Assembly (NCBI GenBank): GCA_965235115.1
Contig: OZ249436.1
Location: 26,042,001 to 26,106,000 of the forward strand
Length of the DNA: 64,000 nucleotides
Direction of reading: 5' to 3'
Origin: Laetmonice hystrix
Lineage: Eukaryota
Shown here: positions 33,546-64,000 of the stretch, piece by piece
How the letters are laid out: the number at the start of each line of letters is the position of its first letter
Numbering within the stretch: the first letter of the stretch is position 1
The notes under the pieces: model-generated
Seen by the model: only the letters and a program-made list of their open reading frames with translations
The model's database searches: none
Told to the model about the DNA's origin: nothing
Translations under genes and position numbers: made by a program

Positions 33546-36500
33546 TCATTTCTTGGTAGATAACAAACATGGCAAGAAATGCTCAAAATAAAAGGCATCA
33601 ATATTTTCTTTCATATCTGCAAAGAAAGCTTCATCAACATTAATTTTTTCAATTATGAAATCTTCTTCACAGTAAACCATAAAGTCACACCAAGTGAATC
33701 CTGTAATGCCTAACTGTCCCATTATTTGGTAGTAGTACTCATGAGTGTGTTTTAATGTGTACTCCCCATTCTGTCTTTGCTTCAAATATTTACAATCTTT
33801 ATAGGTGTTGTTCCCAGGACACTTTATCTCAAGAAGCCCCCACTTTTGGTCATCTGCAGCAGATGGATCATATACGAGACGATCAGGAGAGCATCCCAAA
33901 TGACAAGCTGTGGGATTTATAACAAAGCCAATGCTGTACACATTCACTCCCTTGTTTCTGGCGTAAACTTCTGCAGCTGTAGGTTCAAGTTCTAGCCCTC
34001 TTCTCATCAAACTGGTTTGCACAGTTTTGCCTGTTATCAGTCTTTGAGCCAGAGATTTAAAGTCTCCACGTCTACAGCAAATCTGTTTGAATTTTGATGC
34101 AGTTAGACGTGACTCGCGAAGTTTTTTCCACTCAGGGCAAGCACTTTGTGTACGGGTTGAAAGTTCGTAATCTGATGACTCGAGCAATGAGCATGAAAGC
34201 CCATCATACAATGACTGAAGTTCATCCGTGAGGGTAGACACATCGTAAATCATAGGAAGAACAGGTCTCGGGCAAGGTGGTCGACTGGGGGCATCAGCTA
34301 CCATTAGTATACGGTCTCCTGGGGTGGTTATCTGCTGCTGATGAGCAAGCGTAGAGCCAAATGGGACTGGACCAATCTCACTTGGAACAGCTACAGGCCA
34401 GTTATCCGGAAGTAGCTGCAAAATCTGGGGCTGTACAGCCTGTGTAGACATCATGCGCGATATTTTACCAGCAAAGTTCCTCGAGACGTCATAAATCGGT
34501 TCTCTGATAGGGTTATACAGCGTAGATGTAATTCCTGAGATAAAAAGAAAATATTAAAAGACTATGAACAATTTTTACAACATACAATGTTACAATTGCA
34601 ACAATATTTATCCACTTGGGTAAAAAAACAGAAATCAAGTTTCACATGTTTTTAGCCCCAACCCCCTCGGGTTGTGGGGTAACAAGAACTGTTAGAAGCT
34701 AGAGGATGTGGTTAACCAATATTCTGGGGCTCACCTGCGCTAGATAATACATGATAAAATTCAATGAAAATATGATGTAAAACTTATTTCATATTTAATT
34801 CTTGAAAGGTTCTTGAATTAACAAAAAATTGTTAATCAAAACAGTTTAATCAAGTTAACCACAAAAAGGAATTTAAAATCAAATAATGCTTTAATTTATG
34901 TTTATTGTTTTGTATTTGAAAAACAATTCTCACCAGTGACAATTCTTTTCTTCTTGACTCTTGGTGCACTGCTTGAGGTAGGTGGCTTGACCTTAAGGAC
35001 TGACATGTCTGATATTGGTACTGGCTTAATTCCATGAGTTCTTGGGGGAATGTGCCATTGCTGTGGAGCCGATGTTTTTGATGTGATGGGGGGAACAACT
35101 TTCAGTCCTAGGTTTTGGTAGTGCACCAGTTGATAAAGAAGAGCAAGAGCGTGATTGCACACTCCTTTACCTGCAGTGCAGGAGCAGTGACATGTGATGT
35201 CCATATCATCAATGAAGTGTAGCTGAAAGCAAAAGAAGATTATTTAGTTCTTACTGTATGTGCATCAATATATTATCAATCATAACATCGTGCAAAATAT
35301 GATAAATTCGTCTCTCACTAAAGTAAAGGGTTGAAGGCCTACATAGGTCTGTTTCTTTCATAAATGTAATGACTACACCTGTGATACCGATCTCAGGTTC
35401 CCGCTTCTGTCCCCCAGAGGATAATGCCAAGGCTGTGTTTAAAATCTGGTATTTTTTTATTATTTAAATACGGTATACAACAAATGTTATCTTACCTCAT
35501 AAACAGATTAACACCTCATAGTCATAGGAACTCCTTTCCTAAGGAAAAAGCAAAAACTTTAAAAAAACTGCAAGTTCAACATTCAGGAATTACTGAATTA
35601 GTAATATATATGCAAAACGCCAACGGTGAAAAAGAGTACTGTAACTAAAACAATAATAACACAATGTTAAAGACAAACTTGAAAAATTACCTGCAGGTCC
35701 TTTGGTGGGTCATTTTTTTTCATTGAGGGGTAACACTGTGCTCTTACCTCCACCTGACTGCCACTCTTTACTGCGCATAAAATGTAGAGAAATGTATTAG
35801 TTTTATTGCATACATTGTGTAGGCCCTATAGTACAGTTATTCCTTTCTTAGCACATTATCATGTTATAATATCTAATTATCAAAAGACTTATATTATAAT
35901 CTTTTTTTTATTTCCCACTGGCCCTGTACTATAGTATAGTATCGTATAGCTGACCCAAGACAAATCTGTCAAAACTGACATAGGCTAGGGCCGACTTAGA
36001 CAATGAAAATATTTGTTTATCATCAATTTAAGTTTATAGTCTACGAGTATGATCTGGATTGATAACTATGAATGATTATGAATGGGTTCTTATGAATGAC
36101 ATTACAACACCACATATATGCCTGGGCCAGACTTGGTCTAGCCTAAGTTTGGTAGCCTAATTAAGTTCAGCCTTCAGGTGACTGTTGCAGGAGCCCGTTT
36201 CACTGACACCCTAAATTCCTAATCAAATGCCCTAATTTGTAAACGGTAACATCCCGACTTGTTGACACCATGCACTCAAAACAAGTCAACTGTCAAGTGT
36301 TTCACTTTCACTAAAAAAAATGTCTCTCCTTGGAATTCAATGGCAATGTTAGGCCTAATTGCAAGGATCGACATTTTTTTTGAAACGGTATGTCTCAATC
36401 AGAATCTTGGATGTCCCCACTAGGCCTACTTGACTTGTTGGGATGTCCTTGCTTGGTGAAACCTAAACTAAAGCAGGCAAAGCTGGCGTAGGCCCTACGG

Positions 36501-36982: not shown

Positions 36983-37148
36983 GTTGATCCCGCCCCAGTT
37001 TGTTTGCGTCATTAGCCTCGTTTTCGATTTTAATGGCCACTCCGTGATACACGACTCATATCACGCCGACGTCATTACATAACCAAAACGAGGCCAATGA
37101 CGCAAACAACAAGGCCACTGTGCCACGTGACTGTGCTCAGCGGCGAAG

Positions 37149-43952: not shown

Positions 43953-45092
43953 GTTGATCCCGCCCCAGTTTGTTTGCGTCATTAGCCTCGTTTTCGATTT
44001 TAATGGCCACTCCGTGATACACGACTCATATCACGCCGACGTCATTACGTAACCAAAACGAGGCCAATGACGCAAACAATACAAGGCCACTGTGCCACGT
44101 GACTGTGCTCAGCGGCGAAGATGGACGGTCGTCACGATCACTGCTGTGTCCCTCTCTGTAAAAGCGACTCGCGATACCACAGACACAGTGAAGTTAGCTT
44201 TCATGCCATCCCAAAAGATGAACAAAGGAGGCGTGCGTGGATTCATGCAATCAGGAGGGACCCTGGATCGAACTTTAAGGTGAATATTTAACCCGAAAAA
44301 AGTCGCAATATCAATCAATGTCAAGCCGACTGCTAGATGATAGATGTAGATTCTAGACCTTGCTTGTCTGGCCTAGCCTAGTTAAGTTGTAGTCTATACT
44401 GTTGAGTGTTGTAGCTAGCATGATTAAAGACTAGAGTATAGGATCGAGGGTATAGATCATGTAGAATTAAGTCTGGATTGACCACGACCTGCTCTGCTAG
44501 CGGGCCGCTGCTAGCACTGGCGCCAGGCCGAACCCCAGCGTCAGCGTGCTTTACGTTTAGTTCTGACATTTATTTACCTGTCTTGAGTGATTGTCATTGT
44601 GACTGTGAGTGTAACTGTCCGATCAGTCAAGTCGTTACCGAAACGAGTTGTAACTGAACCGATAGTGCAGTAGCCAAAACAAAATGGGGGTTAATTTTAT
44701 TCATGTCAAAATTCTTTCTGGTGTGGTAGGCTCTGCGCCGGGAAGGGGGGCGGGGGTGACGATCTTAGACTTTGGAGGTTCATGTCAACAATAAACAAAG
44801 CATGTGTAGACTAGTCTATGTCGGCCTCTATTCTTCAGTATCTAGATCTATATGCTAGGATTAGGAATAGGATTAGTTTTGATGGCAGTCTGTGACTTAT
44901 GGCATGATACAATTTTACAAGACAGTATAGTCAACAATATCAACATTTGCAACAAATCAAGTGTTACTGCCAGGCCTAAGTAGCCTACTGCTTCCCTTAT
45001 TGAATAAAAAACTTATTAGACCTACTTTATTATCCCATCCCCTATCCAGGGGATGGGATCTAGAAATTGTCTGGTTTCGGTTTCTGTATTAT

Positions 45093-47699
45093 TATCCCAT
45101 CCCCCCGATAGGGGGATGGGATCTTAAAATTGTATGGTTTCATCTTCCGTATTATTATTATTATTCCCGGTAGTAGTAGTAGTAGTAGTTGTAGTAGTTG
45201 CATTTGTGCATATATCTCAGTCATTGATAAAGATATCGAAAGGAAACTTGACAGGGACATTCATCATGGTAGGGAGAATCGACATATGTAATTATTACGT
45301 CATACGACGTCACGTCATGACGTCATGACGTATTTTGCATTTTATACTTATAAGCATTTGTTGAAGCAATAATCCATAGTTTCTCAAAACTTTTCATAGC
45401 CTAGTAATTGGGCATAGACCCTTTTTACTATTCTTCTTTATTTTGACCTTTGACCTTTGATGTCATGGGAAAGTAGGTCACATGTCCGAAACTGCTCAAA
45501 TCGTATCTCCTCTGCCATTTTTTTGCGAAAATATGATAATCTTTGGTAGCCAGGCCTTCTATAGTGAGCTTTGTTTGAAACCGCAGGGAATAAGCAATTT
45601 GACCTATTTTCGCTGTACCACGTGACTTTGAAGTTTTGTCACTTTTGACATTTTTTTCTCAAACTGCTTCAGTCATTTAGGAATCGTGTATTTGGTCATT
45701 AGATATGTGCTGCTATTGACGATTGATCACCTTGCATAATTCTTTTCATAAATTTACTAATAATTTTTCATTTATGATAAAATATGTGTAATCTGACTTT
45801 GACAGGCTCTACGTTAAAACATGTTTGAGATAGCCACATACAAATAGAACAATTACAAAGTCTATAGATTCAGGTATATCACTGACTGTTTAGTTCTTTT
45901 TTTGGAAAGGTAGTCTGGCCAGAATTCTAAGTTTTAATGGATAAGAATAATATGTTTACACTGACGGTTGGCATCTCTCAATACACAAACCACCCGCTGT
46001 GCATGGCCGGCCGCCTCTCCCTGCCCGGTGTTGGCAGCATTACGTAACTGCTGCTGATAAGGTCGGGCGGTGACTCCCAGTCAGGATGGGTTGACGTTGA
46101 TGGACCCTTGTGCTGGGAACAGACTTAATTGAATAGCTGGGCATTTGTATTTATATAAAACTGTAGGTATTACTGTCTAATATATTATATTCTTGTATCT
46201 TATATTGGAGGAGAGCGGAATAAAACAACACTGATGATATTAAGCCGTCTTCTTGAAGTTAAGAGAGAACAGTTTTTACTATTGTCCAGCTGCGCCCTAT
46301 ATTTCCCTCCCAGTGAGGGAGGGGTTGGAGGACTGTGATTGTGTATTCAGAATACACAAAGTGACAATTTGCCATAGGCCTAGAGCTAAACCCTTCCTAG
46401 TCGGGAAGTGAGCTAATGCTGAGATCACAGTGAGGTCACCTTTTCCTCACAGTTGTGAAGTCGCAATTATTATGATGTCAGTATGATCTCATGCGGTCAG
46501 AATGAGATATAATTCCGACATCACCCTGATATCACATAAATGTCAGCTGGTAAGATCACACATTGATCTCACAGCAATCCCATAATGATATCACTATGCG
46601 AGAACAAATAGTGAGATCTTTCTGATGTCAGAATGTTATAAAATTCCAACATCACCTTGATATCATGTAAATCTCAGCTGGTGAGGTCACACATTGGACT
46701 CACAGCAATCTCATAAAGACTTCACTATGTGAGAACAAATATTGAGATCTTTCTGATGTCAGAATGTTATAAAATTCCGACATCACCTTGACATCATGTA
46801 AATCTCAGCTGGTGGCGCTGTTATCATTGAGATTGACTAGACTGTCCGAAACACAATGGTTAGAACTGCCTAAGTTAGGATTTTTTCTAGAATGTCTCTG
46901 TGGGAACCCATGAAGGTGGTGCGACAACGTCATTTCAAAAATATATTGGTACTGTTATGTCAGAGAAATATCAAAATGATCTCACAGTGTTAGAAGAAGT
47001 TGAGATCATGGTTAGATCGCTATGAGATTGCTGTAAGATCGTATGCTTCTAAGGAAAGCCCAATATATTGGTACTGTATTATGTCAGAGAGATGTCAAAA
47101 TGATCTCACAGTGAGAGATCAAATGGTGAGATCACAGTGAGAATATAGCTGTAGGAAAGAAGAAATAGCTATAGGAAAGAAAAAATTGATTGTCAGGCGG
47201 TAGTCTTGCGCTAGCACTGAAGGGCCTGCCTGGTGCCGCCTGGCATGGGCACCTCCCTCTATATATCCCCACTCTTTCTTTTTGAAGAATTGACAAAAAT
47301 TATTGTTAGGCTAACTGCCCAGGATTTTCGGCAGAGGGGTCTCCAAAATCGAAATAAATATGAAAATCGATGTTGATAGATCACCAATATTATTGAAACA
47401 GCTATAACTCTGAAAGGGGGCCCGGTAGAGCTATGGTTACTATTGAAGCTATAATAGGAACATGTTCTTTCAAAAGATACCAAAATCTATTATGTAGGGT
47501 GACGTATTACGTGACAATGACGTCATTGATAGATTACCAATATTAATTATTGAGGTCATATAGGAAGTAATAATATATGCTCTTTCGATCTACGGGCCTA
47601 TTGATGACATGGAGGTAGTCTAACATGATAATGTATATATGATTTTCATTGCCAGGGGATGGGATACAAGATGTTGGCCCAAGCCACATCGGCGCTAGT
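45093..47699 (+). mobile_element. HINE-like element B (divergent relative, complete, no long satellite array)
   Basis: Head atcccatccccc-cgata-gggggatgggat, then (TAT)n and (GTA)n. Tail ggggatgggat..gatgttggc/gccacatc..CTAGT. Confidence 0.8.
46496..46815. repeat. 131-bp tandem repeat (~2.4 copies) inside element B
   Basis: gtcagaatg at 46496, 46627 and 46758. Confidence 0.85.
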
Positions 47700-47912
47700 T
47701 ATCCCATCCCCTATCCAGGGGATGGGATCTAGAAATTGTGTGGTTTCGGTTTCCGTATTATTATTATTATTATTATTATTATCCCATCCCCTATCCAGGG
47801 GATGGGATCTAGAAATTGTCTGGTTTCGGTTTCCGTATTATTATTATTATCCCATCCCCTATCCAGGGGATGGGATCTAGAAATTGTCTGGTTTCGGTTT
47901 CCGTATTATTAT
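47700..47912 (+). repeat. Three stacked HINE 5' heads (starts 47700, 47780, 47848), each followed by (TAT)n; a fourth of this type at 45031
   Basis: tatcccatcccctatccaggggatgggatctagaaattgt(c/g)tggtttcggtttccg repeated three times. Confidence 0.92.
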
Positions 47913-50898
47913 TCGCGTAGTAGTAGTAGTAGTAGTAGTAGTTGTTAACAATTGTTAACAGGGGTCATAACTCGGTCATTTTTCAAGATATCTAAGTCAA
48001 ACTTGGTGGGCATGTTGCCAGTCACCAACTCTGATGTGACAATGAGTCATGATGTCACATGACGTAACGTCATGACGTCATGACGTCATTCGTGTTGTGA
48101 CTATTAGGACGGTTTTCAAAGTCAATATGGATACTATCCAAAAACTGATGACACTGTCAGAATTGGGCAAGGTCCTGATAATTTTTTGCAAATATTTTGA
48201 CCTTTGACCTTTGACCTGTCTGAAATCAGGGTCAAAGGTCATAAAATGCTTAAATCCCTCTTTCTTCCTTAATTTTCATTAAAATTTTATGAAATTGCAC
48301 AGGAATGGTGTCTAATTAGAGTTCCAAAGGAATCCGCCTTTCTACAATTGTTTGACCTACATTCACTGAGTCACGCGACCTCAAAATTTTGAACAGTGGT
48401 CAATTTGGCTATCTATGGCTACAACTCATAAACGGTGCCGGTAAGGGCCATGGTTACTATTGAACACGAATAGGAAGTCATGCATGCTCTTTCATTTGAC
48501 GCCAAGTTTGATGACGTAGTGTGACGTATGACGTCATAATGACATCATCAATGTTTTCTAAGGCCTATAACTCCTAAACGATGGGAGATAAAGCCATGGT
48601 TACTATTGAACATGCATAGGAAGTCATACATGCTCCTTCAATTGACACCAATATTCATTAGGTAGCGTGACGTATGACGTCATAATGACGTAATTGGTAT
48701 CTTCTATGGCCTATAACTCGAAAACGGTGCAAGATAGGGTCATAGTTACCATTGAACATGAATAGGAAGTCATACAAGCTCTTTCCACTGACACCAAGTT
48801 TAAGGATGTAGCTTGACGTATGACGTCATAATGACGTCATCAATATTTTCTAAGGGCTGTAACTCCTAAACGGTGGGAGATAAAGGCATGGTTACTATTG
48901 AACATGAATAGGAAGTCATATGCACTTTCAAATGACACCATCATTTATTAGGTAGCGTGACATATGACGTCATAATGACGTCATTGGTGTCTTCCATGGC
49001 CTATAACTCGAGAACAGTGCAAGATAGAACCATAGTTACTATTGAAGACGAATAGGAAATCATGCATGCTCTTTCTATTGAGGCCAAGTTTGATGACGTA
49101 GGATGACGTATGACGTAATGACGTCATCAATATTTTCTAAGGCCTGTAACTCCTAAACGGTGGGAGATAAAGCCATGGTTACTATTGGACATGAATAGGA
49201 AGTCATACATGGTCTTTCAATTGACACCAACATTTATTAGGTAGCGTGACGTATGACGTCATAATGACGTCATTGGTATCTTCTATGGCCTATAAGTCGA
49301 AAACAGTGCAAGATAGGACCATAGTTACTATTGAACACGAATAGGAAGTCATACATGCTCTTTCAATTGAGGCCAAGTTTGATGACGTAGCGTGACGTAT
49401 GACGTCATAATGACGTCATCAATATTTTCTAGGGCCTTTACCTCCTAAACGGTGGGAGATAAACCCATGGTTACTATTGGACATGAGTAGGAAGTCATAC
49501 ATGCTCTTTCAATTGACACCTACATTTATTAGGTAGCGTGACGTATGACGTAATAATGACGTCAGGAGTCATATCTCGGTCGTTTTTCAAGATATCTAAG
49601 TCAAACTTGGTGGACATGTTGATAGTCACCAACTCTGATTTGACAATGAGTCATGACGTCACATGACCTAACGTCATGACGTACAATGACGTCATCAATA
49701 TTTTGTAGGGCCTATAACTCCTAAACGGTCGGAGATAAAGCCATGGTTACTATTGAACATAAATAGGAAGTCATACATGCTCTTTCAATTGACACCAACA
49801 TTTATTAGGTAGCGTGACGTATGACGTCATAATGACGTCATTGGTATCTTCTATGGCCTATAAGTCGAAAACAGTGCAAGATAGAACCATAGTTACTATT
49901 GAACACGAATAGGAAGTCATACATGATCTTTCAATTGAGGCCAAGTTTGATGACGTAGCGTGATGTATTACGTCATAATGACGTCATCTATATTTTCTAA
50001 GGCCTATAACTCCTAAACGGTGGGAGATAAACCCATGGTTACTATTGGACATGAGTAGGAAGTCATACATGCTCTTTCAATTGACACCTACATTTATTAG
50101 GTAGCGTGACGTATGACATAATAATGACGTCAGGAGTCATATCTCGGTCGTTTTTCAAGATATCTAAGTCAAACTTGGTGGACATGTTGATAGTCACCAA
50201 CTCTGTTTTGACAATGAGTCATGATGTCACATGACGTAACGTCATGACGTACAATGACGTCATCAATATTTTGTAGGGCCTATAATTCCTAAACGGTTGG
50301 AGATAAAGCCATGGTTACTATTGAACATGAATAGGAAGTCATACATGCTCTTTCAATTGACGCCAACATTTATTAGGTAGCGTGACGTATGATGTCATAA
50401 TGACGTCATTGGTATCTTCTATGGCCTATAAGTTGAAAACAGTGCAAGATAAGACCATAGTTACTATTGAACACGAATAGGAAGTCCTACATGTTCTTTC
50501 AATTGAGGCCAAGTTTGATGACGTAGCGTGACGTATGACGTCATAATGACGTCATCAGTATTTTCTAGGGCCTATAACTCTTAAACGGTGGGAGATAAAG
50601 CCACAGTTACTATTGAACACGAATAGGAAGTCATGCATGCTCTTTCAACTGAGGCCAAGATTAATGACGTAGCATGACGTATGACGTCATAGTGGCGTTA
50701 TCTATATTTTCTAAGGCCTAATAACTCCTAAACGGTGGGAGATAAAACCATGGTTACTACTGAACATGACTAGGAAATCATACATGCTCTTTCAATTGAC
50801 ACCAACATTTATAAACGTCATAATGACCTTACTAAGTCATAGGGACATGCCCCCCAAGGGATGGGATCCATCGTGGTTTTTACCACGACAGGTCTAGT
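47848..50898 (+). mobile_element. Innermost complete HINE (head + body 1)
   Basis: Head, (GTA)n, conserved ~480-bp block, 146-bp array, then ggggatgggat + tcgtggt/accacga hairpin + CTAGT. Confidence 0.82.
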
Positions 50899-53310
50899 TC
50901 GCGTAGTAGTAGTAGTAGTAGTTGTTAACAATTGTTAACAGGGGTCATAACTCGGTCATTTTTCAAGATATCTAAGTCAAACTTGGTGGGCATGTTGCCA
51001 GTCACCAACTCTGATGTGACAATGAGTCATGACGTCACATGACGTAACGTCCTGACGTCATGACGTCATTCGTGTTGTGACTATTAGGACGGTTTTCAAA
51101 GTCAATATGGATACTATCCAAAAACTGATGACACTGTCAGAATTGGGCAAGGTCCTGATAATTTTTTTGCAAATATTTTGACCTTTGACCTTTGACCTGT
51201 CTGAAATCAGGGTCAAAGGTCATAAAATGCTTAAATCCCTCTTTCTTCCTTAATTTTCATTAAAATTTTATGAAATTGCACAGGAATGGTGTCTAATTAG
51301 AGTTCCAAAGGAATCCGCCTTTCTACAATTGTTTGACCTACATTCGCTGAGTCACGTGACCTCAAAATTTTGAACAGTGGTCAATTTGGCTATCTATGGC
51401 TACAACTCATAAACGGTGCCGGTAAGGGCCATGGTTACTATTGAACACGAATAGGAAGTCATGCATGCTCTTTCATTTGACGCCAAGTTTGATGACGTAG
51501 TGTGACGTATGACGTCATAATGACATCATCAATGTTTTCTAAGGCCTATAACTCCTAAACGATGGGAGATAAAGCCATGGTTACTATTGAACATGCATAG
51601 GAAGTCATACATGCTCCTTCAATTGACACCAATATTCATTAGGTAGCGTGACGTATGACGTCATAATGACGTAATTGGTATCTTCTATGGCCTATAACTC
51701 GAAAACGGTGCAAGATAGGGTCATAGTTACCATTGAACATGAATAGGCAGTCATACAAGCTCTTTCCACTGACACCAAGTTTAAGGATGTAGCTTGACGT
51801 ATGACGTCATAATGACGTCATCAATATTTTCTAAGGACTGTAACTCCTAAACGGTGGGAGATAAAGGCATGGTTACTATTGAACATGAATAGGAAGTCAT
51901 ATGCACTTTCAAATGACACCATCATTTATTAGGTAGCGTGACATATGACGTCATAATGACGTCATTGGTGTCTTCCATGGCCTATAACTCGAGAACAGTG
52001 CAAGATAGAACCATAGTTACTATTAAAGACGAATAGGAAATCATGCAGGCTCTTTCTATTGAGGCCAAGTTTGATGACGTAGGATGAAGTATGACGTAAT
52101 GACGTCATCAATATTTTCTAAGGCCTGTAACTCCTAAACGGTGGGAGATAAAGCCATGGTTACTATTGAACATGAATAGGAAGTCATACATGGTCTTTCA
52201 ATTGACACCAACATTTATTAGGTAGCGTGACGTATGACGTCATAATGACGTCATTGGTATCTTCTATGGCCTATAAGTCGAAAACAGTGCAAGATAGGAC
52301 CATAGTTACTATTGAACACGAATAGGAAGTCATACATGCTCTTTCAATTGAGGCCAAGTTTGATGACGTAGCGTGACGTATGACGTCATAATGACGTCAT
52401 CAATATTTTCTAGGGCCTTTAACTCCTAAACGGTGGGAGATAAACCCATGGTTACTATTGGACATGAGTAGGAAGTCATACATGCTCTTTCAATTGACAC
52501 CTACATTTATTAGGTAGCGTGACGTATGACGTAATAATGACGCCAGGAGTCATATCTCGGTCGTTTTTCAAGATATCTAAGTCAAACTTGGTGGACATGT
52601 TGATAGTCACCAACTCTGTTTTGACAATGAGTCATGACGTCACATGACGTAACGTCATGACGTACAATGACGTCATCAATATTTTGTAGGGCCTATAATT
52701 CCTAAACGGTTGGAGATAAAGCCATGGTTACTATTGAACATAAATAGGAAGTCATACATGATCTTTCAATTGACGCCAACATTTATTAGGTAGCGTGACG
52801 TATGATGTCATAATAACGTCATTACTATCTTCTATGGCCTATAAGTCGAAAACAGTGCAAGATAGGACCATAGTTACTATTGAACACGAATAGGAAGTCC
52901 TACATGCTCTTTCAATTGAGGCCAAGTTTGATGACGTAGCGTGACGTATGACGTCATAATGACGTCATCAGTATTTTCTAGGGCCTATAACTCTTAAACG
53001 GTGGGAGATAAAGTCACAGTTACTATTGAGCACGAATAGGAAGTCATGCATGCTCTTTTAACTGAGGCCAAGTTTAATGACGTAGCATGACGTATGACGT
53101 CATAGTGGCGTTATCTATATTTTCTAAGGCCTATAACTCCTAAACGGTGGGAGATAAAGCCATGGTTACTACTGAACATGAATAGGAAATCATACATGCT
53201 CTTTCAATTGACACCAACATTTATAAACATCATAATGACCTTACTAAGTCATAGGGACATGCCCCCCAAGGGATGGGATCCATCGTGGTTTTCACCACGA
53301 CAGGTCTAGT
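50899..53310 (+). mobile_element. HINE body 2 (head displaced, probably 47780)
   Basis: Starts tcgcg(gta)n, near-identical to body 1, same 3' terminus. Confidence 0.8.
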
Positions 53311-53314
53311 TCGC

Positions 53315-53346
<32 letters not shown>

Positions 53347-55733
53347 TGTTAACAATTGTTAACAGGGGTCATAACTCGGTCATTTTTCAAGATATCTAAG
53401 TCAAACTTGGTGGGCATGTTGCCAGTCACCAACTCTGATGTGACAATGAGTCATGACGTCACATGACGTAACGTCATGACGTCATGACGTCATTCGTGTT
53501 GTGACTATTAGGACGGTTTTCAAAGTCAATATGGATACTATCCAAAAACTGATGACACTGTCAGAATTGGGCAAGGTCCTGTGAATTTTTTTGCAAATAT
53601 TTTGACCTTTGACCTTTGACCTGTCTGAAATCAGGGTCAAAGGTCATAAAATGCTTAAATCCCTCTTTCTTCCTTAATTTTCATTAAAATTTTATGAAAT
53701 TGCACAGGAATGGTGTCTAATTAGAGTTCCAAAGGAATCCGCCTTTCTACAATTGTTTGACCTACATTCGCTGAGTCACGTGACCTCAAAATTTTGAACA
53801 GTGGTCAATTTGGCTATCTATGGCTACAACTCATAAACGGTGCCGGTAAGGGCCATGGTTACTATTGAACACGAATAGGAAGTCATGCATGCTCTTTCAT
53901 TTGACGCCAAGTTTGATGACGTAGTGTGACGTATGACGTCATAATGACATCATCAATGTTTTCTAAGGCCTATAACTCCTAAACGATGGGAGATAAAGCC
54001 ATGGTTACTATTGAACATGCATAGGAAGTCATACATGCTCCTTCAATTGACACCAATATTCATTAGGTAGCGTGACGTATGACGTCATAATGACGTAATT
54101 GGTATCTTCTATGGCCTATAACTCGAAAACGGTGCAAGATAGGGTCATAGTTACCATTGAACATGAATAGGAAGTCATACAAGCTCTTTCCACTGACACC
54201 AAGTTTAAGGATGTAGCTTGACGTATGACGTCATAATGACGTCATCAATATTTTCTAAGGGCTGTAACTCCTAAACGGTGGGAGATAAAGGCATGGTTAC
54301 TATTGAACATGAATAGGAAGTCGTATGCACTTTCAAATGACACCATCATTTATTAGGTAGCGTGACATATGACGTCATAATGACGTCATTGGTGTCTTCC
54401 ATGGCCTATAACTCGAGAACAGTGCAAGATAGAACCATAGTTACTATTAAAAACGAATAGGAAATCATGCATGCTCTTTCTATTGAGGCCAAGTTTGATG
54501 ACGTAGGATGACGTATGACGTAATGACGTCATCAATATTTTCTAAGGCCTGTAACTTCTAAACGGTGGGAGATAAAGCCTTGGTTACTATTGAACATGAA
54601 TAGGAAGTCATACATGGTCTTTCAATTGACACCAACATTTATTAGGTAGCGTGACGTATGACGTCATAATGACGTCATTGGTATCTTCTATGGCCTATAA
54701 GTCGAAAACAGTGCAAGATAGGACCATAGTTACTATTGAACACGAATAGGAAGTCATACATGCTCTTTTAATTGAGGCCAAGTTTGATGACGTAGCGTGA
54801 CGTATGACGTCATAATGACGTCATCAATACTTTCTAGGGCCTTTAACTCCTAAACGGTTGGAGACAAACCCATGGTTACTATTGGACATGAATAGGAAGT
54901 CATACATGCTCTTTCAATTGACACCTACATTTACTAGGTAGCGTGACGTATGACGTAATAATAACGTCAGGAATCATATCTCGGTCGTTTTTCCAGATAT
55001 CTAAGTCAAACTTGGTGGACATGTTGATAGTCACCAACTCTGTTTTGACAATGAGTCATGACGTCACATGACGTAACGTCATGACGTACAATGACGTCAT
55101 CAATATTTTGTAGGGCCTCTAATTCCTAAACGGTTGGAGATAAAGCCATGGTTACTATTGAACATGAATAGGAAGTCATACATGCTCTTTCAATGGACGC
55201 CAACATTTATTAGGTAGCGTGACGTATGATGTCATAATGACGTCATTGGTATCTTCTATGGCCTATAAGTCGAAAACAGTGCAAGATAGAACCATAGTTA
55301 CTATTGAACACGAATAGGAAGTCCTACATGTTCTTTCAATTGAGGCCAAGTTTGATGACGTAGCGTGACGTATGACGTCATAATGACGTCATCAGTATTT
55401 TCTAGGGCCTCTAACTCTTAAACGGTGGGAGATAAAGCCACAGTTACTATTGAACACGAATAGGAAGTCATGCATGCTCTTTCAACTGAGGCCAAGTTTA
55501 ATGACGTAGCATGACGTATGACGTCATAGTGGCGTTATCTATATTTTCTAAGGCCTATAACTCCTAAACGGTGGGAGATAAAGCCATGGTTACTACTGAA
55601 CATGAATAGGAAATCATACATGCTCTTTCAATGACACCAACATTTATAAACGTCATAATGACCTTACTAAGTCATAGGGACATGCCCCCCAAGGGATGGG
55701 ATCCATCGTGGTTTTCACCACGACAGGTCTAGT
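53311..55733 (+). mobile_element. HINE body 3 (head displaced, probably 47700)
   Basis: As body 2. Confidence 0.8.
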
Positions 55734-58265
55734 TATTATTTGCGTAGTAGTAGTAGTAGTAGTAGTAGTTGTTAACAATTGTTAACAGGGGTCATAACTC
55801 GGTCATTTTTCAAGATATCTAAGTCAAACTTGGTGGGCATGTTGCCAGTCACTAACTCTGATGTGACAATGAGTCATGACGTCACATGACGTAACGTCAT
55901 GACGTCATGACGTCATTCGTGTTGTGACTATTAGGACGGTTTTCAAAGTCAATATGGATACTTTCCAGGAACTGATGACACTGTCAGAATTGGGCAAGGT
56001 CCTGATAATTCTTTTGCAAATATTTTGACCTTTGACCTATGACCTGTCTGAAATCTGGGTCAAAGGTCATAAAATGCTTAAATCCCTCCTTCTTCCTTAA
56101 TTTTCATTAAAATTTTATGAAATTGCACAGGAATGGTGTCTAATGAGAGTTCCAAAGGAATCCGCCTTGCTACAATTGATTTGACCTACATTCGCTGAGT
56201 CACGTGACCTCAAAGTTTTGAACAGTGGTCAATTTGGCTATCTATGGCTATAACTCATAAACGGTGCCAGTAAGGGCCATAGTTACTATTGAAGACGAAT
56301 AGGAAGTCATGCATGCTCTTTCATTTGACACCAATATTTATTAGGTAGCGTGACGTATGACGTCATAATGACGTCATTGGTATCTTCTATGGCCTATAAG
56401 TCGAAAACAGTGCAAGATAGGACCATAGTTACTATTGAACACGAATAGGAAGTCATACATGCTCTTTCATTTGAGGCCAAGTTTAATGACGTAGCGTGAC
56501 GTATGACGTCATAATGAAGTCATCAATATTTTCTAGGGCCTATCACTCTTAAACGGTGGGAGGTAAAGCCAGAGTTACTATTAAACACGAATAGGAAGTC
56601 ATGAATGCTCTTTCAGTTGACGCCAAGTTTGATGACATAGCGTGACCTATGACGTCACAATGACGTCATCCGTATTTTCTAGGGTCTATACGTCCTAAAT
56701 GGTGGAAGATAAAGCCATGGTTACTATTGAAAACAAATAGGAAGTCATGGATGCTCTTTCAACTGAGGCCAAGTTTAATGACGTAGCTTGACGTTTGACG
56801 TCATAGTGACGTCATCAATATTTTCTAAGGCCTATAACTCCTAAACGGTGGGAGATAAAACCATGGTTACTATTGGACATGAATAGGAAGTCATGCATGC
56901 TCTTTCAATAATTATATATATTGACGCCAAGTTTGATGACGTAGTGTGACGTATGACGTCAAAATGACATCATCAATGTTTTCTAAGGCCTATAACTCCT
57001 AAACGGTGGGAGATAAAGCCATGGTTACTATTGAACATGCATAGGAAGTCATACATGCTCTTTCAATTGACACCAACATTTATTAGGTAGCGTGACGTAT
57101 GACGTCATAATGACGTCATTGGTATCTTCTATGGCCTATAAGTCGAAAACGGTGCAAGATAGGACCATAGTTACTATTGAACACGAATAGGAAGTCATAC
57201 ATGCTCTTTCAATTGAGGCCAAGTTTAATGATGTAGCGTGACGTATGACGTCATAATGAAGTCATCAATATTTTCTAGGGCCTATCACTCTTAAACGGTG
57301 GGAGGTAAAGGCAGAGTTACTATTAAACACGAATAGGAAGTCATGAATGCTCTTTCAGTTGACGCCAAGTTTGATGACATAGCGTGACCTATGACGTCAC
57401 AATGACGTCATCCGTATTTTCTAGGGTATATACGTCCTAAATGGTGGGAGATAAAGCCATGGTTACTATTGAAAACATATAGGAAGTCATGGATGCTCTT
57501 TCAACTGAGGCCAAGTTTAATGACGTAGCTTGACGTTTGACGTCATAGTGACGTCATCAATATTTTCTAAGGCCTATAACTCCTAAACGGTGGGAGATAA
57601 AACCATGGTTACTATTGGACATGAATAGGAAGTCATGCATGCTCTTTCAATTGACACCAACATTTATTAGGTAGCGTGACGTATGACGTAATAATGACGT
57701 CATTGGTATCTTCTATGGCCTATAAGTCGAAAACAGTGCAAGATAGGACCATAGTTACTATTGAACATGTATAGGAAGTCATACATGCTCTTTCAATTAA
57801 AGCCAAGTTTGATGAGGTAGCGTGATGTATGACGTCATGTGACGTCATCAATATTTTCTAGGGCCTATAACTCTTAAACGGTGGAAGATAAAGCCATGGT
57901 TACTATTGAACATGAATAGGAAGTCATACATGCTCCTTCAAGTGACACCAATATTCATTAGGTAGCGTGACGTATTACGACATAATGACGTCATTGGCAT
58001 CTTGTAAGACCTATAACTCAAAGGCGGTGCAAGATATGGCCATAGTTAATATTGAACGTGAATAGGAAGTCATGCTCTTTCAATTGACGCCAAGTTAGAT
58101 GACATAGCATTACGTATGACGTCATAAATACATATCCTGACATCATACATCATAATGACATCATTTAGTCGATAGAGCCATAGTTAACCCTACTCAGAAC
58201 ATTACGGAAAGGACATGTCGCCCAGGGGATGGGATCCATCGTGGTCTAGCCACGACATGTCTAGT
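55734..58265 (+). mobile_element. HINE body 4 (different subfamily; head probably 45031)
   Basis: Residual (TAT)n then (GTA)n; tail tcgtgg-tctag-ccacga..CTAGT. Confidence 0.78.
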
Positions 58266-60418
58266 TATTATTATTATTTGCGGCGTAGTAGTAGTAGTAG
58301 TAGTAGTAGTAAACAGGGGTCGTGTATCTCGGCCGTTTTTCAAGATATCTAAGTCAAACTTGGTGGACATGTTAATAGTCACCAACTCTGATCTGACAAT
58401 GAGTCATGACGTCACACGACGTAACGTCATGACGTCATGACGTCATTCGTGTTCTGAATATTAGGACGGCTTTCAAGGTCACTATTGATACTTTTGAGGA
58501 ACTGATGACACAGTCTAAATTGGGCAAGGACCTAATTGATTTTTTTCAAAAATTTTGACCTTTGACCTTTGACATGTCTAAAAGCTAGGTCGACTTCCTC
58601 AATTTTCATTAGAATTTCATGAAATTGCACAGGGATGGTCTCTAACGAGAGCTTCAAAGGAATCCGCTTCGCTACAATTGATTTGACCTATATTCGTTGA
58701 GTCACGTGACCTGAAAGATTTGAACAGAGGTCAATATAGATATATATGGCTATAACTAAGAAACGGTGCCAGATAGGGCCATAGTTACTATTGAACACGA
58801 ATAGGAAGTCATGTATGCTCTTTCAATTGACGCCAAGTTTGATGACGTAGCATGAAGTATGACGTCATAATGACGTCATCTATATTTTCTAAGGCCTAGA
58901 ACTCCTCAATGGTGGGAGATAAAGCCATGATTACTATTGAACACGAATAGGAAGTCATGTATGCTCTTTTAATTGACGTCAAGTTTGATGACGTATCGTG
59001 ACGTATGACGTCATAATGACGTCATTGGTATCTTCTATGGCCTATAACTCGAAAACGGTGCAGCATAGGACCATAGTTACTATTGAACACGAATAGGAAG
59101 TCATATGTGCTCTTTCAATTGAGACCAAGTTTGATGACGTAGCGTGACGTATGACGTCATAAGGACGTCATCAATATTTTCTAAGGCCTATAGCTTGTAA
59201 ATGGTGGGAGATAAAGCCATGGTTACTTTTGAACATGAATAGGAAGTCATAGATCCTCTTTTAAATGACATCAAGATTCATGACGTAGCATGACGTAGGT
59301 CATAAAGAGTGACATCAATATTTTCTAAGGTTTATGACTCCTAAACGGTTGGAGATAAAGCCATGGTTACTATTGAACTTCAATAGGAAGTCATACATGC
59401 TCTTTCAATTGACACCAACATTTATTAGGTAGCGTGACGTATGACGTCATAATGACGTCATTTGTATCTTCTATGGCCTATAACTCATAAACGGTGCCAT
59501 ATAGGCCCATAGTTACTATTGAACACGAATAGGAAGTCATATATGTTCTTTCCATTGTGGCAAGTTTGATGACGTAGCGTGAAGTATGACGTCATAATGA
59601 TGCCATCAATATGTTCTAAGGCCTCTAACTCGGAAATGGAGGGCGATAAAGCCATGGTTACTACTGAACATGAATAGAAAGTCATAGATCCTCTTTTAAA
59701 TGACATCACGATTCATGACGTAGCATGACGTATAATGACGTCATCAATATATTCTAAGGCTTATGACTCCTAAACGGTGGGCGATAAAGCCATGGTTACT
59801 ATTGAACTTGAATAGGAAGTCATACATGCTCTTTCCATTGCCACTAACATTTATTAGGTACCGTGACGTATGACGTTATAATGATGTCTTTGGTATCTTC
59901 TATGGCCTATAACTCGAGAACGGTGCAAGATATGACCATATTTACTACTGAAGGCGAATAGGAAGTCATATATGCTCTTTCAATTGACACCAAGATTAAT
60001 GATGTAGCATCACATATGACGTCATAATGACATCATCAATATTTTCTAAGGAATATAACTCCTAAACGGTGGCAGATAAAGCCATGGTTACTATTGAACA
60101 TGAATAGGAAGTTATATGCTCTTTGAATTGACACCAACATTTATTAGGTAGCGTGACGTATGACGTCGTAATTACGTCATTGCCATCTTCTAAGGATTTT
60201 CAGAGGCCTGTAACTACCAAACGGTGCTAGATAGCACCATAGTTACTATTGAACATGAATAGTAATAGTCATAGATCATAATGACGAAATTTGCATCTTC
60301 TAAGGCTTATCATCACGGGTGCAAGATAGCACCATACCTAGTTATCCCTACTCAGAACATGTTGGACGGGACACCCCGGGGATGGGATCCATTGTGGTAT
60401 CGCCACAACGAATCTAGT
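58266..60418 (+). mobile_element. HINE body 5 (most divergent, outermost 3' end)
   Basis: Residual (TAT)n, (GTA)n, diverged conserved block; tail ttgtgg-tatcg-ccacaa..CTAGT. Confidence 0.78.
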
Positions 60419-62894
60419 TACTATTAGTCTAGTAGATGTAGTAGTAGTAGCAGATCTAGTACCCAAAATTCTGATTTAAATGAAAATTGAATCCACCCAG
60501 TGACCCTCCCAAGGCTGCTATTTTAATGCTGATGGGTTTAATAGCCAGGATAATTCAGTATGACGTATTCAATCAGTGTATCTATAGTTTACATGTAATT
60601 GTATATTAATTTGAATTTCTTTTCACACCCTAGATCACGTCTTCAACTAAGGTGTGCTCCATACATTTTGAGAAAGAAGAGATTGTGAGAAGCCTGTGTG
60701 GAAAGCGGGGTGTGATTAAGGGAGCAGTTCCTCACATATTTCCATGGACCAAGGAAGCAAAGAGCAGGAAGTCACCAAAAGAGCGAGTGTCATCTTCTAA
60801 TGAACCAACTGACGATGGGTTCCAAATGGAATACACTGAAGAAAGGTAAATTCAAATGAATATCAAGGTTAGAAATTAGGCCAAAAAAAACTTTTTTGGA
60901 AGCACAGCAAAAGGCCATCCAGCCTCCCGCTAACATCGATACCTGAATATGAAAGACACTTTATGTATTTGATAAAATATCAACTGGTTGGTAATGAAAA
61001 ATTTCTTGGGTAATCTTTGGTAATCAACTTCGGTCAAAATGGCAGTGCTATTAGACTAATGACATTCCTTCTTTTTCAGTGAAGCAAGCAGAAGTGTACT
61101 CTGTCAACGGCCTCCGGACCACGACTACACAGCATGTTCAAAACTGACACTTGAAGAGCAATTGGAAGCTGCCTTGGAACACATCAGTCTGCTGGAGAAG
61201 GAAAATGAACACCTGAAATCGCTCCAGTTTGGTATCAATCGTTTCACCACAGATCCTGACATGATAGCTTTCTATACAGGCTTCAGATCATATGATATGT
61301 TCTTGACAACATATTTAGCCTTTCAACCAACCGCTGATAATCTTCTCACTTGGTCACAGCTTCAGAGACAGAGGTCCGGTACTGCCTTAAACACAAGAGA
61401 CATTCTCAAACATGAACATCTATCCACAATAGATCAATTTTTCTTATTTATGTGTCGCTGCAAGGCTGGCCTTTTTGAGAAGGATCTGGCCGAAAGGTTC
61501 CATGTAAGCTTCTCAACAGTGAGCAGAATCATCATCACCTGGGCAAACTATCTGTACCACCTTTTAGGAGCTTTGCCAATTTGGCCATCTTGTCATCAGA
61601 TTCGTAAACATATTCCTGAATGTTTCAAAGAGTGTTATTCTACCACCAGAGTAATATTAGATTGCACTGAGATTAAGTGTCAAACTCCATCAGCGTTGTA
61701 CTTGAACAGCCAGCTGTACTCGCACTACAAGGGTAGCACAACATTCAAGGGTCTGATAGGCATTACACCCTCAGGAGCAGTGTCATTTGTCAGTCAGCTG
61801 TACACGGGAAGCATTTCTGATGTGGACATCACAGCAAGATGTGGCATTGTTGACCTTTTAGACTCACTGGACTCGGTCATGGCTGACAAGGGATTCACCA
61901 TCCAAGACCTTTTGGCTACAAAAGGTGCCACTCTGACAATTCCGCCTTTTTTAACTGACAAACGTAACCAATTTGAAAGGGGTGAGGTTCAGCAAACACA
62001 GAATATTGCCAGGGTCAGGATCCACGTTGAACGCGCTATCAGGAGAGTAAAGGAGTATCACATATTTGATAGCATTGTACCACTAAGCCTGGCAGGTACC
62101 ATCAACCAATGTGGACTGTTTGTGCTCTTCTGACAAACTTCAGAGGTCCCCTTTTCTGACTGCATCATGAAGCATTTCTCAACAAATCGATCATCCCATC
62201 ACAGTGTTAGTTGCTGTATCTGACGTGATACAGTATTTGCTGCCATGTCTTGAAAAATTAAAAATTGGTTGTCGGGTTGAAATAAGTTCCTTTTAAAAAG
62301 AATATGTACTTTGATGATAAAATGTTATTTACGGTACATGTGAATTCTTTTTAATAGAAAAATGGAAGTTTAAAAACTTGACAATTTTACTGTCAAGGAG
62401 GGGAACATGTATTTCTTTAGATTTACCCCAGTGTAGTAACGAAAATAAAGATGAAGAATAATGGAAGACTCAAAAAATTCTTCAGTATTTTTAATTCATC
62501 CTGCAATAATTGATCGATTTACAAATGGTTTACAGATGACATAAATACGGTTACATGATCTGGTCATGTAACATTTAAGTTACCTGTTATCTTACGGAGG
62601 GTTCTCCTTTTTTTTCTGTAATTAGTAAGTTTACCCATTTCATTCCACTCCGAGTTCCAGAACGTGAACATCGAACGTCTTCTTCCGTCTCCAACGCACC
62701 CAAGATCCTTATTTTAAAACATAATTTTACATTTCTATTGCCCTACCGTACCTACCTGACAACACAGTAGCATTAAGCAAGTTCTCACACTGTATATGAC
62801 TGAAATCTTTTCCACATTAAATATTTTGCAAAGCATTACTATCATCATCATACAGTAATATTTGGTCATCATGTACAGTTTGTGTCGTCACATT

Positions 62895-63883
62895 TCATTT
62901 CTTGGTAGATAACAAACATGGCAAGAAATGCTCAAAATAAAAGGCATCAATATTTTCTTTCATATCTGCAAAGAAAGCTTCATCAACATTAATTTTTTCA
63001 ATTATGAAATCTTCTTCACAGTAAACCATAAAGTCACACCAAGTGAATCCTGTAATGCCTAACTGTCCCATTATTTGGTAGTAGTACTCATGAGTGTGTT
63101 TCAATGTGTACTCCCCATTCTGTCTTTGCTTCAAATATTTACACTCTTTATAGGTGTTGTTCCCAGGACACTTTATCTCAAGAAGCCCCCACTTTTGGTC
63201 ATTTGCAGCAGATGGATCATATACGAGACGATCAGGAGAGCATCCCAAATGACAAGCTGTGGGATTTATAACAAAGCCAATGCTGTACACATTCACTCCC
63301 TTGTTTCTGGCGTAAACTTCTGCAGCTGTAGGTTCAAGTTCTAGCCCTCTTCTCATCAAACTGGTTTGCACAGTTTTGCCTGTTATCAGTCTTTGAGCCA
63401 GAGATTTAAAGTCTCCACGTCTACAGCAAATCTGTTTGAATTTTGATGCAGTTAGACGTGACTCGCGAAGTTTTTTCCACTCAGGGCAAGCACTTTGTGT
63501 ACGGGTTGAAAGTTCGTAATCTGATGACTCGAGCAATGAGCATGAAAGCCCATCATACAATGACTGAAGTTCATCCGTGAGGGTAGACACATCATAAATC
63601 ATAGGAAGAACAGGTCTCGGGCAAGGTGGTCGACTGGGGGCATCAGCTACCATTAGTATACGGTCTCCTGGGGTGGTTATCTGCTGCTGATGAGCAAGCG
63701 TAGAGCCAAATGGGACTGGACCAATCTCACTTGGAACAGCTACAGGCCAGTTATCCGGAAGTAGCTGCAAAATCTGGGGCTGTACAGCCTGTGTAGACAT
63801 CATGCGCGATATTTTACCAGCAAAGTTCCTCGAGACGTCATAAATCGGTTCTCTGATAGGGTTATACAGCGTAGATGTAATTC
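62895..63883 (-). CDS. SWIM-YqaJ exonuclease (E7), last exon only (rest lies beyond the window)
   Basis: Open frame; two substitutions (D>N, D>E) and two synonymous SNPs relative to other copies. Confidence 0.88.
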
Positions 63884-64000
63884 CTGAGATAAAAAGAAAA
63901 TATTAAAAGACTATGAACAATTTTTACAACATACAATGTTACAATTGCAACAATATTTATCCACTTGGGTAAAAAAACAGAAATCAAGTTTCACATGTTT

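Follow-up and report, generated by a model that had tools for sequence, protein, structure and literature searches.

A nest of Helentron-like elements in one unit of a transposon tandem array of Laetmonice hystrix

The nest described here lies at positions 45031-60418 of a 64,000-nucleotide window of the Laetmonice hystrix genome (GenBank assembly GCA_965235115.1, contig OZ249436.1, positions 26,042,001 to 26,106,000 of the forward strand; coordinates below are those of the window). Very probably, six non-autonomous Helitron2/Helentron-type elements, five belonging to a family A and one to a family B, were stacked here by successive insertions that left no target duplication. Its 15.4 kb occupy intron 1 of a THAP-DDE transposase gene, between the THAP exons, in one unit of an ISL2EU-like tandem array. 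The nest is real and represents a new HINE-type family pair. Element type and self-insertion have been described before, and the value of the locus lies in its natural controls, not in a new kind of system. Six empty sister sites in the array provide a base-exact target and a clock; most HINE nests can be neither dated nor un-nested with certainty.

Architecture and junctions of the nest

Motif scans located hairpin heads starting at 45031, 45093, 47700, 47780 and 47848, and CTAGT tails ending at 47699, 50898, 53310, 55733, 58265 and 60418. These scans agreed with a preliminary description of the same DNA for its five heads and for the five tails from 50898 outward; the tail at 47699 and the surrounding tandem array with its six empty sites were absent from that description. 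It had paired five heads one-to-one with five bodies, which does not hold: family A has four heads for five bodies because the head at 45093 belongs to a separate, complete family B element ending at 47699. The nest was resolved into the following parts, all on the plus strand, including the adjoining half of the target site. ATIR denotes asymmetrical terminal inverted repeat.

45031-45092, plus strand: family A head H1 (5' ATIR hairpin, core) with (TAT)2; outer left end of the nest
45093-47699, plus strand: complete family B element with its own head, (TAT)5, (GTA)n, a body with 131-bp repeats, 3' ATIR, hairpin and CTAGT
47700-47779, plus strand: family A head H2 with (TAT)8
47780-47847, plus strand: family A head H3 with (TAT)4
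47848-50898, plus strand: innermost complete family A element with head H4, 3,051 bp (body 1)
50899-53310, plus strand: headless body 2, beginning with TCGC-(GTA)n
53311-55733, plus strand: headless body 3, beginning with TCGC-(GTA)n
55734-58265, plus strand: headless body 4, beginning with (TAT)2; core some 3% away from those of bodies 1-3; 12 of 61 tail columns different
58266-60418, plus strand: headless body 5, beginning with (TAT)4; core divergence 12.7-14.5%; the nest ends on the right with the tail of this body
60419-60449, plus strand: host target site, right half; rich in TAT/TAG, with (GTA)4 at its end, and similar to the internal tract of the elements

The complete family A copy at 47848-50898 begins with a 12-bp 5' hairpin, followed by (TAT)3, (GTA)8, a core of ~490 bp and ~15 monomers mostly of 146 bp; after these, the 5' arm recurs inverted in a subterminal position, and another hairpin and CTAGT close the element. 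The 146-bp satellite is cargo internal to each element, and a TAT tract lies about 56 bases behind the head in each. The 5' ATIR hairpins of the A and B heads have 12-bp stems one base from the end (-15.3 and -14.8 kcal/mol). At the other end the 3' ATIR is subterminal in all six tails and stops about 31-33 bases from the end, followed by hairpin stems of 6-8 bp. Among themselves, heads H1-H4 show 0-2 differences in 57 columns: H3 equals H4, H2 is one base off, and H1 is 1-2 columns from H2-H4; the head at 45093 differs from all of them at 13-14 of 58. The family B element is 2,607 bp long, carries a 12-nt inverted pair (45093-45104 and 47655-47666) and is 67-75% identical to family A over the first 410 bases (head and core start) and one monomer. 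Within it, at 46400-47140, different internal repeats (131-bp units plus inverted copies) replace most of the 146-bp array.

No open reading frame (ORF) of at least 120 amino acids was present within 45031-60418, and Rfam gave no matches in 44000-61000. End architecture and body plan fit the Helentron-like identity proposed in the preliminary description, and from these sequence features the copies are classified as putative non-autonomous Helitron2/Helentron-type elements, HINE/DINE-1-like in character.

Joining 45030 to 60419 reproduces the empty site exactly, and all six sister units are empty (3100/3101, 10090/10091, 17084/17085, 24078/24079, 31068/31069 and 38058/38059). As the joined flanks equal these sites, insertion took place at TAT^T (the caret marking the joint) without duplication. 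The register can shift by one base in either direction; A^T, T^T and T^N are all compatible with the junctions. The inner junctions likewise lie at TAT^T behind a head, with the exception of 47699/47700, which is a tail-to-head joint without an intact TAT tract; the former statement that every junction lies in the TAT tract after a head applies to the others only. In-silico removal of 47848-50898 and then of 47780-53310 restored head-(TAT)n-TCGC-(GTA)n each time, as the preliminary description had stated for all steps outward. The third step departs from that statement in that it needs separate removal of the family B element. Removal of 45093-55733 gives H1-(TAT)4-body 4, and body 5 is left without a head.

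Some further features of the copies were noted. Bodies 1-3 contain a ~130-bp copy of their own core start inside the 146-bp array, forming 276-bp monomers (at 49565, 50133, 52546 and 54970). This copy is slightly nearer to the core of body 5 (5-6 differences in 111 columns) than to their own core (8-10 in 114-118), hinting at possible template switching between subfamilies. Body 4 looks chimeric, its core being 97% like those of bodies 1-3 and its tail different in 12 of 61 columns, with a five-monomer duplication inside. Metagenome scans for the head hairpin gave no loci, and a looser pattern gave 29, none of them related. These 29 were set aside as unrelated hairpins, as none continues into the head core or a TAT tract and none aligns to the nest over at least 40 bases.

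Target preference, origin of the copies and rival explanations

An intact element offers 482 T^T sites (both strands) and 57 TAT^T sites. The four inner insertions fell within the 3-10 sites of a TAT tract, for which p is about 1.5e-9 to 1.9e-7 with TT as the only requirement and 7.7e-6 to 9.5e-4 with TAT^T, values uncorrected for a region picked by eye. The outer insertion site ranked first among the 1,345 T^T sites and first among the 94 TAT^T sites of the host unit in likeness to the tract of either family, scored over the 33 downstream bases only. This site is independent of the element's own sequence and supports a target preference wider than TT; the earlier proposal that the preferred target resembles the element's own TAT/(GTA)n tract thereby gains one independent data point.

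The locus offers a way of testing whether the microsatellite conserved in DINE-1-like elements is carried as a passive passenger or serves as a preferred target. We tentatively consider the latter, a possibility to which we give well under an even chance: the DINE-1/HINE microsatellite would be a functional landing pad borne by the element, RepHel would recognise TAT^T upstream of (GTA)n with such strength that a single pad received 4-5 insertions from two families at no more than 0.14% neutral divergence. Under this proposal (GTA)n may be read as repeats of TAGT, in imitation of the CTAGT with which the element itself ends. If true, self-targeting would be a safe-harbour strategy by which elements with satellites accumulate in growing blocks, and the role as a landing pad would explain why HINE/DINE-1 elements retain a microsatellite at that position.

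Substitutions between host units amount to 0-0.14% (99.86-100% identity), plus a few indels. Within the nest, the cores of bodies 1-3 differ by 0.6-1.0%, the core of body 4 is 2.9-3.3% diverged and that of body 5 12.7-14.5%; the tails of bodies 4 and 5 differ in 12 and 17-18 of 61 columns, respectively. Pairwise, bodies 1-3 differ at 30, 33 and 35 of ~2,373 bases, body 1 having been compared without its extra 568-base block. The 51 variable columns comprise 15 private to body 1, 16 to body 2 and 20 to body 3, interleaved, and a mosaic test for unequal crossover in these three bodies found no crossover block. Duplication in place after array formation predicts at most ~3.3 differences (Poisson p 7e-19). 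In-place tandem duplication is therefore excluded, in agreement with the preference for insertion over unequal crossover expressed in the preliminary description. The bodies came from distinct donors, as bodies 1-3 have private differences and bodies 4 and 5 belong to other subfamilies.

The flanks of the nest (700 bases left, 900 right) show no differences from any of the six empty units. Consequently, the body divergence of 1.3-15% predates arrival and is no clock of time in place. The expectation that divergence follows nesting depth was borne out in so far as bodies 1-3 are near-identical and the outer ones more diverged; its reading as age in place was not. Divergence increases monotonically outward, and having body 5 outermost and body 4 next is a 1-in-20 outcome under random donor order. 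Some of the nest was probably already assembled on arrival.

Single strands would be copied from head to tail by a RepHel transposase whose gene would lie elsewhere in the genome, and would be integrated at TAT^T where TAT-rich simple sequence directly precedes a (GTA)n run. Because each element carries such a tract behind its head, a new copy would split the resident into a left head and a right headless body. Three routes to the present nest were weighed, all of which are self-insertion. The most likely is a mixed one, to which we assign slightly less than an even chance. A composite of H1, body 4 and body 5 would have arrived first, having been made elsewhere by reading through one 3' end, with body 5's own head left behind at the origin. 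Three young family A copies (bodies 1-3 with H2-H4) and the family B element would then have inserted in place into the tract of the composite, all within the time of no more than 0.14% host unit divergence. This mixed route would account for most of the outward gradient, for the absence of one head and for the similarity of H1 to the young heads. The closeness of H1 to H2-H4 (1-2 of 57 columns) fits the core of body 4 (3%) and not that of body 5 (14%). A single read-through appears plausible: about 11.7% of events of Helraiser, a Helitron1, read past one 3' end (PMC4778049; here and below, publications are cited for the accessible parts of their text).

Contigs from three sequencing runs of one sample, possibly those of the assembly itself, were compared with the window. 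The runs are not independent support, contig depth does not equal copy number, and the contig joints discussed are among the 15 listed out of at least 20; a further 6 at repeats, exactly at the TAT/GTA tracts where nested joins would fall, were excluded. Per run, 1,400-2,108 contigs matched 44800-48440 at depths far above those of single-copy-like contigs, which is no measure of copy number; both families were of high depth. Two of the three runs contained a head-to-head join at AT^T (45092 to 45029) that is absent from the window, at a single-copy-like depth of 62-70. The joint 45097 to 45031 was set aside as ambiguous, and the row 47855 to 47804 was a variant head loop and no join.

Several points weigh against stepwise stacking at an element-borne tract. 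None of the contigs listed spans the nest, so its assembly is unconfirmed by reads, and no autonomous partner is encoded within the window. An A-like head was joined to a body-5-like start (45070 to 47979) in two of the three runs; therefore H1 could be body 5's own head. An abundant form without the TAT/GTA tract (45070 to 47964; depth 2,936, one of the three runs) indicates that the tract is dispensable for spreading. Under an earlier, ungapped two-sided score the outer site came second of 1,345, the top-ranked one lying 6 bases from it within the same tract, and the outer-site test covers one event, with a score chosen after the resemblance had been noticed. Finally, one of the seven host tracts in the window is occupied, and stacking in place requires several insertions in this one tract while six sister tracts took none.

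The tract-less form itself is a subfamily whose head runs straight into the body, and constitutes a natural control without the pad.

The two other routes are each judged unlikely, at roughly one chance in five expressed loosely. All elements may have inserted in place one at a time, one head of ~70 bases having been lost later by slippage between near-identical tandem heads. The heads are near-perfect direct repeats of 68-80 bases and would easily be lost, and the A-like heads on body-5-like elements among the joints listed are in keeping with such a loss; the route nevertheless requires six insertions at one site within no more than 0.14% divergence, with none in six sister tracts, and leaves the outward gradient unexplained. 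Alternatively, the whole 15.4-kb nest may have been built elsewhere over a longer time and moved in one event, from H1 to the tail of body 5. The array clock would then date the last jump only, and no exceptional insertion rate would be required. The monotonic outward gradient (1 in 20 by chance) and the occupation of a single host tract out of seven are consistent with such an arrival, and composite transposition of nested copies has been proposed for FoHeli (PMC5148889). Against it, five internal 3' ends would have to be passed, with a probability of about 2e-5 at the Helraiser rate of 11.7% each (PMC4778049) if these are independent; Helitron2 termination may differ.

Separate multiplication of heads and bodies by tandem duplication (unequal crossover or slippage), or aberrant rolling-circle amplification, is considered improbable. 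The identity of H3 and H4, with H2 one base off, and the starting junction shared by bodies 2 and 3 are what duplication would produce, and plant arrays of rolling-circle origin that combine many 5' ends with one 3' end have been described (Xiong et al. 2016, via PMC12628747). Such arrays yield extra heads and no extra complete 3' ends, however, and the 15-20 private differences in each of bodies 1-3, about ten times the array divergence and free of any crossover mosaic, oppose duplication, as does the assignment of bodies 4, 5 and B to different subfamilies; duplication before arrival could still account for bodies 1-3. An artefact of assembly is highly improbable: the host array is near-identical between units and none of the contigs listed spans the nest, but each body has its own differences. 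Moreover, a 7,021-base contig matching the empty unit had a depth of 507 against about 51-64 for single-copy-like contigs of the same run, which, although depth is no copy number, agrees roughly with the seven or more units in the window. Least probable of all, and close to negligible, is a cut-and-paste miniature inverted-repeat transposable element (MITE) of PIF/Harbinger type that duplicates a 3-bp TTA target and might be mobilised by the adjacent DDE transposase. The outer junction is formally readable as a TTA duplication and a DDE_Tnp_4 gene flanks the nest; the TTA reading fits four of the six right-hand junctions, yet the other two read TTC, and the 3' inverted repeat is subterminal, about 31 bases in, with a hairpin behind it. 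A PIF/Harbinger MITE, with terminal inverted repeats (TIRs) and a TWA duplication, was rejected on these grounds. Helitron1, which has a 5' TC, a single hairpin before its 3' CTRR, an A^T target and no inverted repeats, was likewise rejected, as ATIRs and a 5' hairpin are present; the CTAG end and the hairpin are Helitron1 features, and the junctions can formally be read in an A^T register, but this would make TT the 5' end.

With insertion of Helitron2-type elements as the preferred explanation, the locus indicates that a 15-kb satellite-rich block can arise in an intron within no more than 0.14% divergence by insertion and not by local duplication.

The host array

The tandem array extends on both sides of the nest, covering 60419-64000 as well, and its units are arranged head-to-tail in seven or more copies within the window. 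Each unit encodes a DDE_Tnp_4/HTH_Tnp_4 protein, a YqaJ protein and a THAP domain divided over two exons (Pfam), and this coding content is the one that defines ISL2EU (THAP, HTH and DDE transposase plus YqaJ ORF). The following features were assigned.

1-45030, no single strand: host tandem array of ~6,990-bp units, ISL2EU-like; THAP/HTH/DDE transposase on plus, YqaJ on minus
44121-44279, plus strand: exon 1 of the host transposase gene, first half of THAP (PF05485 positions 1-43, E 9.5e-11); GT follows at 44280
60634-60783, plus strand: exon 2 of the host transposase gene, second half of THAP (PF05485 positions 50-87, E 8.7e-4, 20.4 bits, which alone is below the curated cut-off); AG precedes
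61063-62133, plus strand: HTH/DDE exon of the interrupted host copy, with a 1-base deletion relative to sister units (Pfam run on the sister copy 31713-32807)
62895-63902, minus strand: YqaJ-domain ORF of the host unit (Pfam run on the sister copy 33549-34553)

Frameshifts interrupt the transposase exon in several units (alignment columns 932-935, 1274-1292 and 1694): three units carry an insertion of 4 bases (TTAA), the unit at 38059 has lost 19 bases and the nest-bearing copy has its 1-base deletion. The frame of 365 amino acids is kept in the units at 24079 and 31069. An imperfect palindrome of ~110 bp (37000-37109, present in every unit, e.g. at about 43970-44080) has 25-nt arms that are 96% complementary. 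Its place is upstream of the start of THAP (44121), towards the apparent beginning of the YqaJ gene on the opposite strand, and it is either a bidirectional promoter or the joined ends of the host element. The 7,021-base contig (run X2) suggests that the whole host unit loops on itself in the assembly graph. This young tandem array of a two-gene DNA transposon may merit a study of its own.

Comparison with known systems

The host unit shares with ISL2EU the transposase with THAP, HTH and DDE domains and the second, YqaJ ORF (PMC4482050). It differs in forming a head-to-tail array of 7-kb units, and in the host units no clear junction with the GG-starting TIRs and AT duplication of ISL2EU was located.

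The nest elements are most readily placed beside HINEs/DINE-1 (Thomas et al. 2014, PMC4067079) and the oyster Cg_HINEs (PMC7492417). Common to them are a 5' subterminal inverted repeat with an adjacent inverted repeat, a microsatellite behind the head, central tandem repeats of 140-180 bp and a 3' subterminal inverted repeat with a palindrome, as well as a TT target without target duplication and the absence of coding capacity (PMC4067079, PMC7492417, PMC8268682). The microsatellite is (TAT)n/(GTA)n in the nest and of GTCY type in HINEs/DINE-1 (PMC4067079, PMC7492417). The accessible text of the same two sources reports insertion into other repeats and clustering, not stacking in the element's own microsatellite. 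Satellite repeats as internal cargo are a likeness to the oyster Cg_HINEs (PMC7492417), and truncated, tandemised Helitron parts inserted in other elements have also been described from oyster (PMC12628747). The literature covered, largely outside subscription journals, Repbase and supplements, yielded no paper naming a HINE's own microsatellite as target, and self-insertion for FoHeli only.

With Helitron2/HLE2 the elements share the 5' ATIR, 0-2 bases from the end and forming a hairpin, the 5' T, the T^T insertion and the 3' ATIR just upstream of the 3' hairpin (Bao and Jurka 2013, PMC3627910; HELIANO, PMC11417382). The distance of the 3' ATIR from the end is about 31 bases in the nest as compared with 20-30 in the definition of Helitron2 (PMC3627910), and the target context is TAT^T as compared with TTTT^T/C for Helitron2 in Chlamydomonas (PMC3627910, PMC11417382). 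An autonomous Helitron2/HLE2 partner would carry the same ends and encode a RepHel of the HLE2 clade; for a Helentron in the strict sense, its transposase would also have an apurinic-apyrimidinic endonuclease domain. Paramecium Helitrons, too, have a strand-specific preference for a simple repeat, for which telomeric targeting has been proposed, and abundant internal satellites; they form a separate clade, and their target is the host telomere repeat and not a tract carried by the element (PMC13085455).

FoHeli, a Helitron2-type family of Fusarium oxysporum, resembles the nest in having short 5' termini of under 200 bp in stacks, attributed to self-insertion and composite transposition (PMC5148889), with up to five stacked 5' termini in one copy (PMC13342296). 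In FoHeli several 5' ends share one 3' end (PMC5148889), whereas the nest retains all displaced bodies with their 3' ends; unlike FoHeli, it has more bodies than heads and combines two families at one site.

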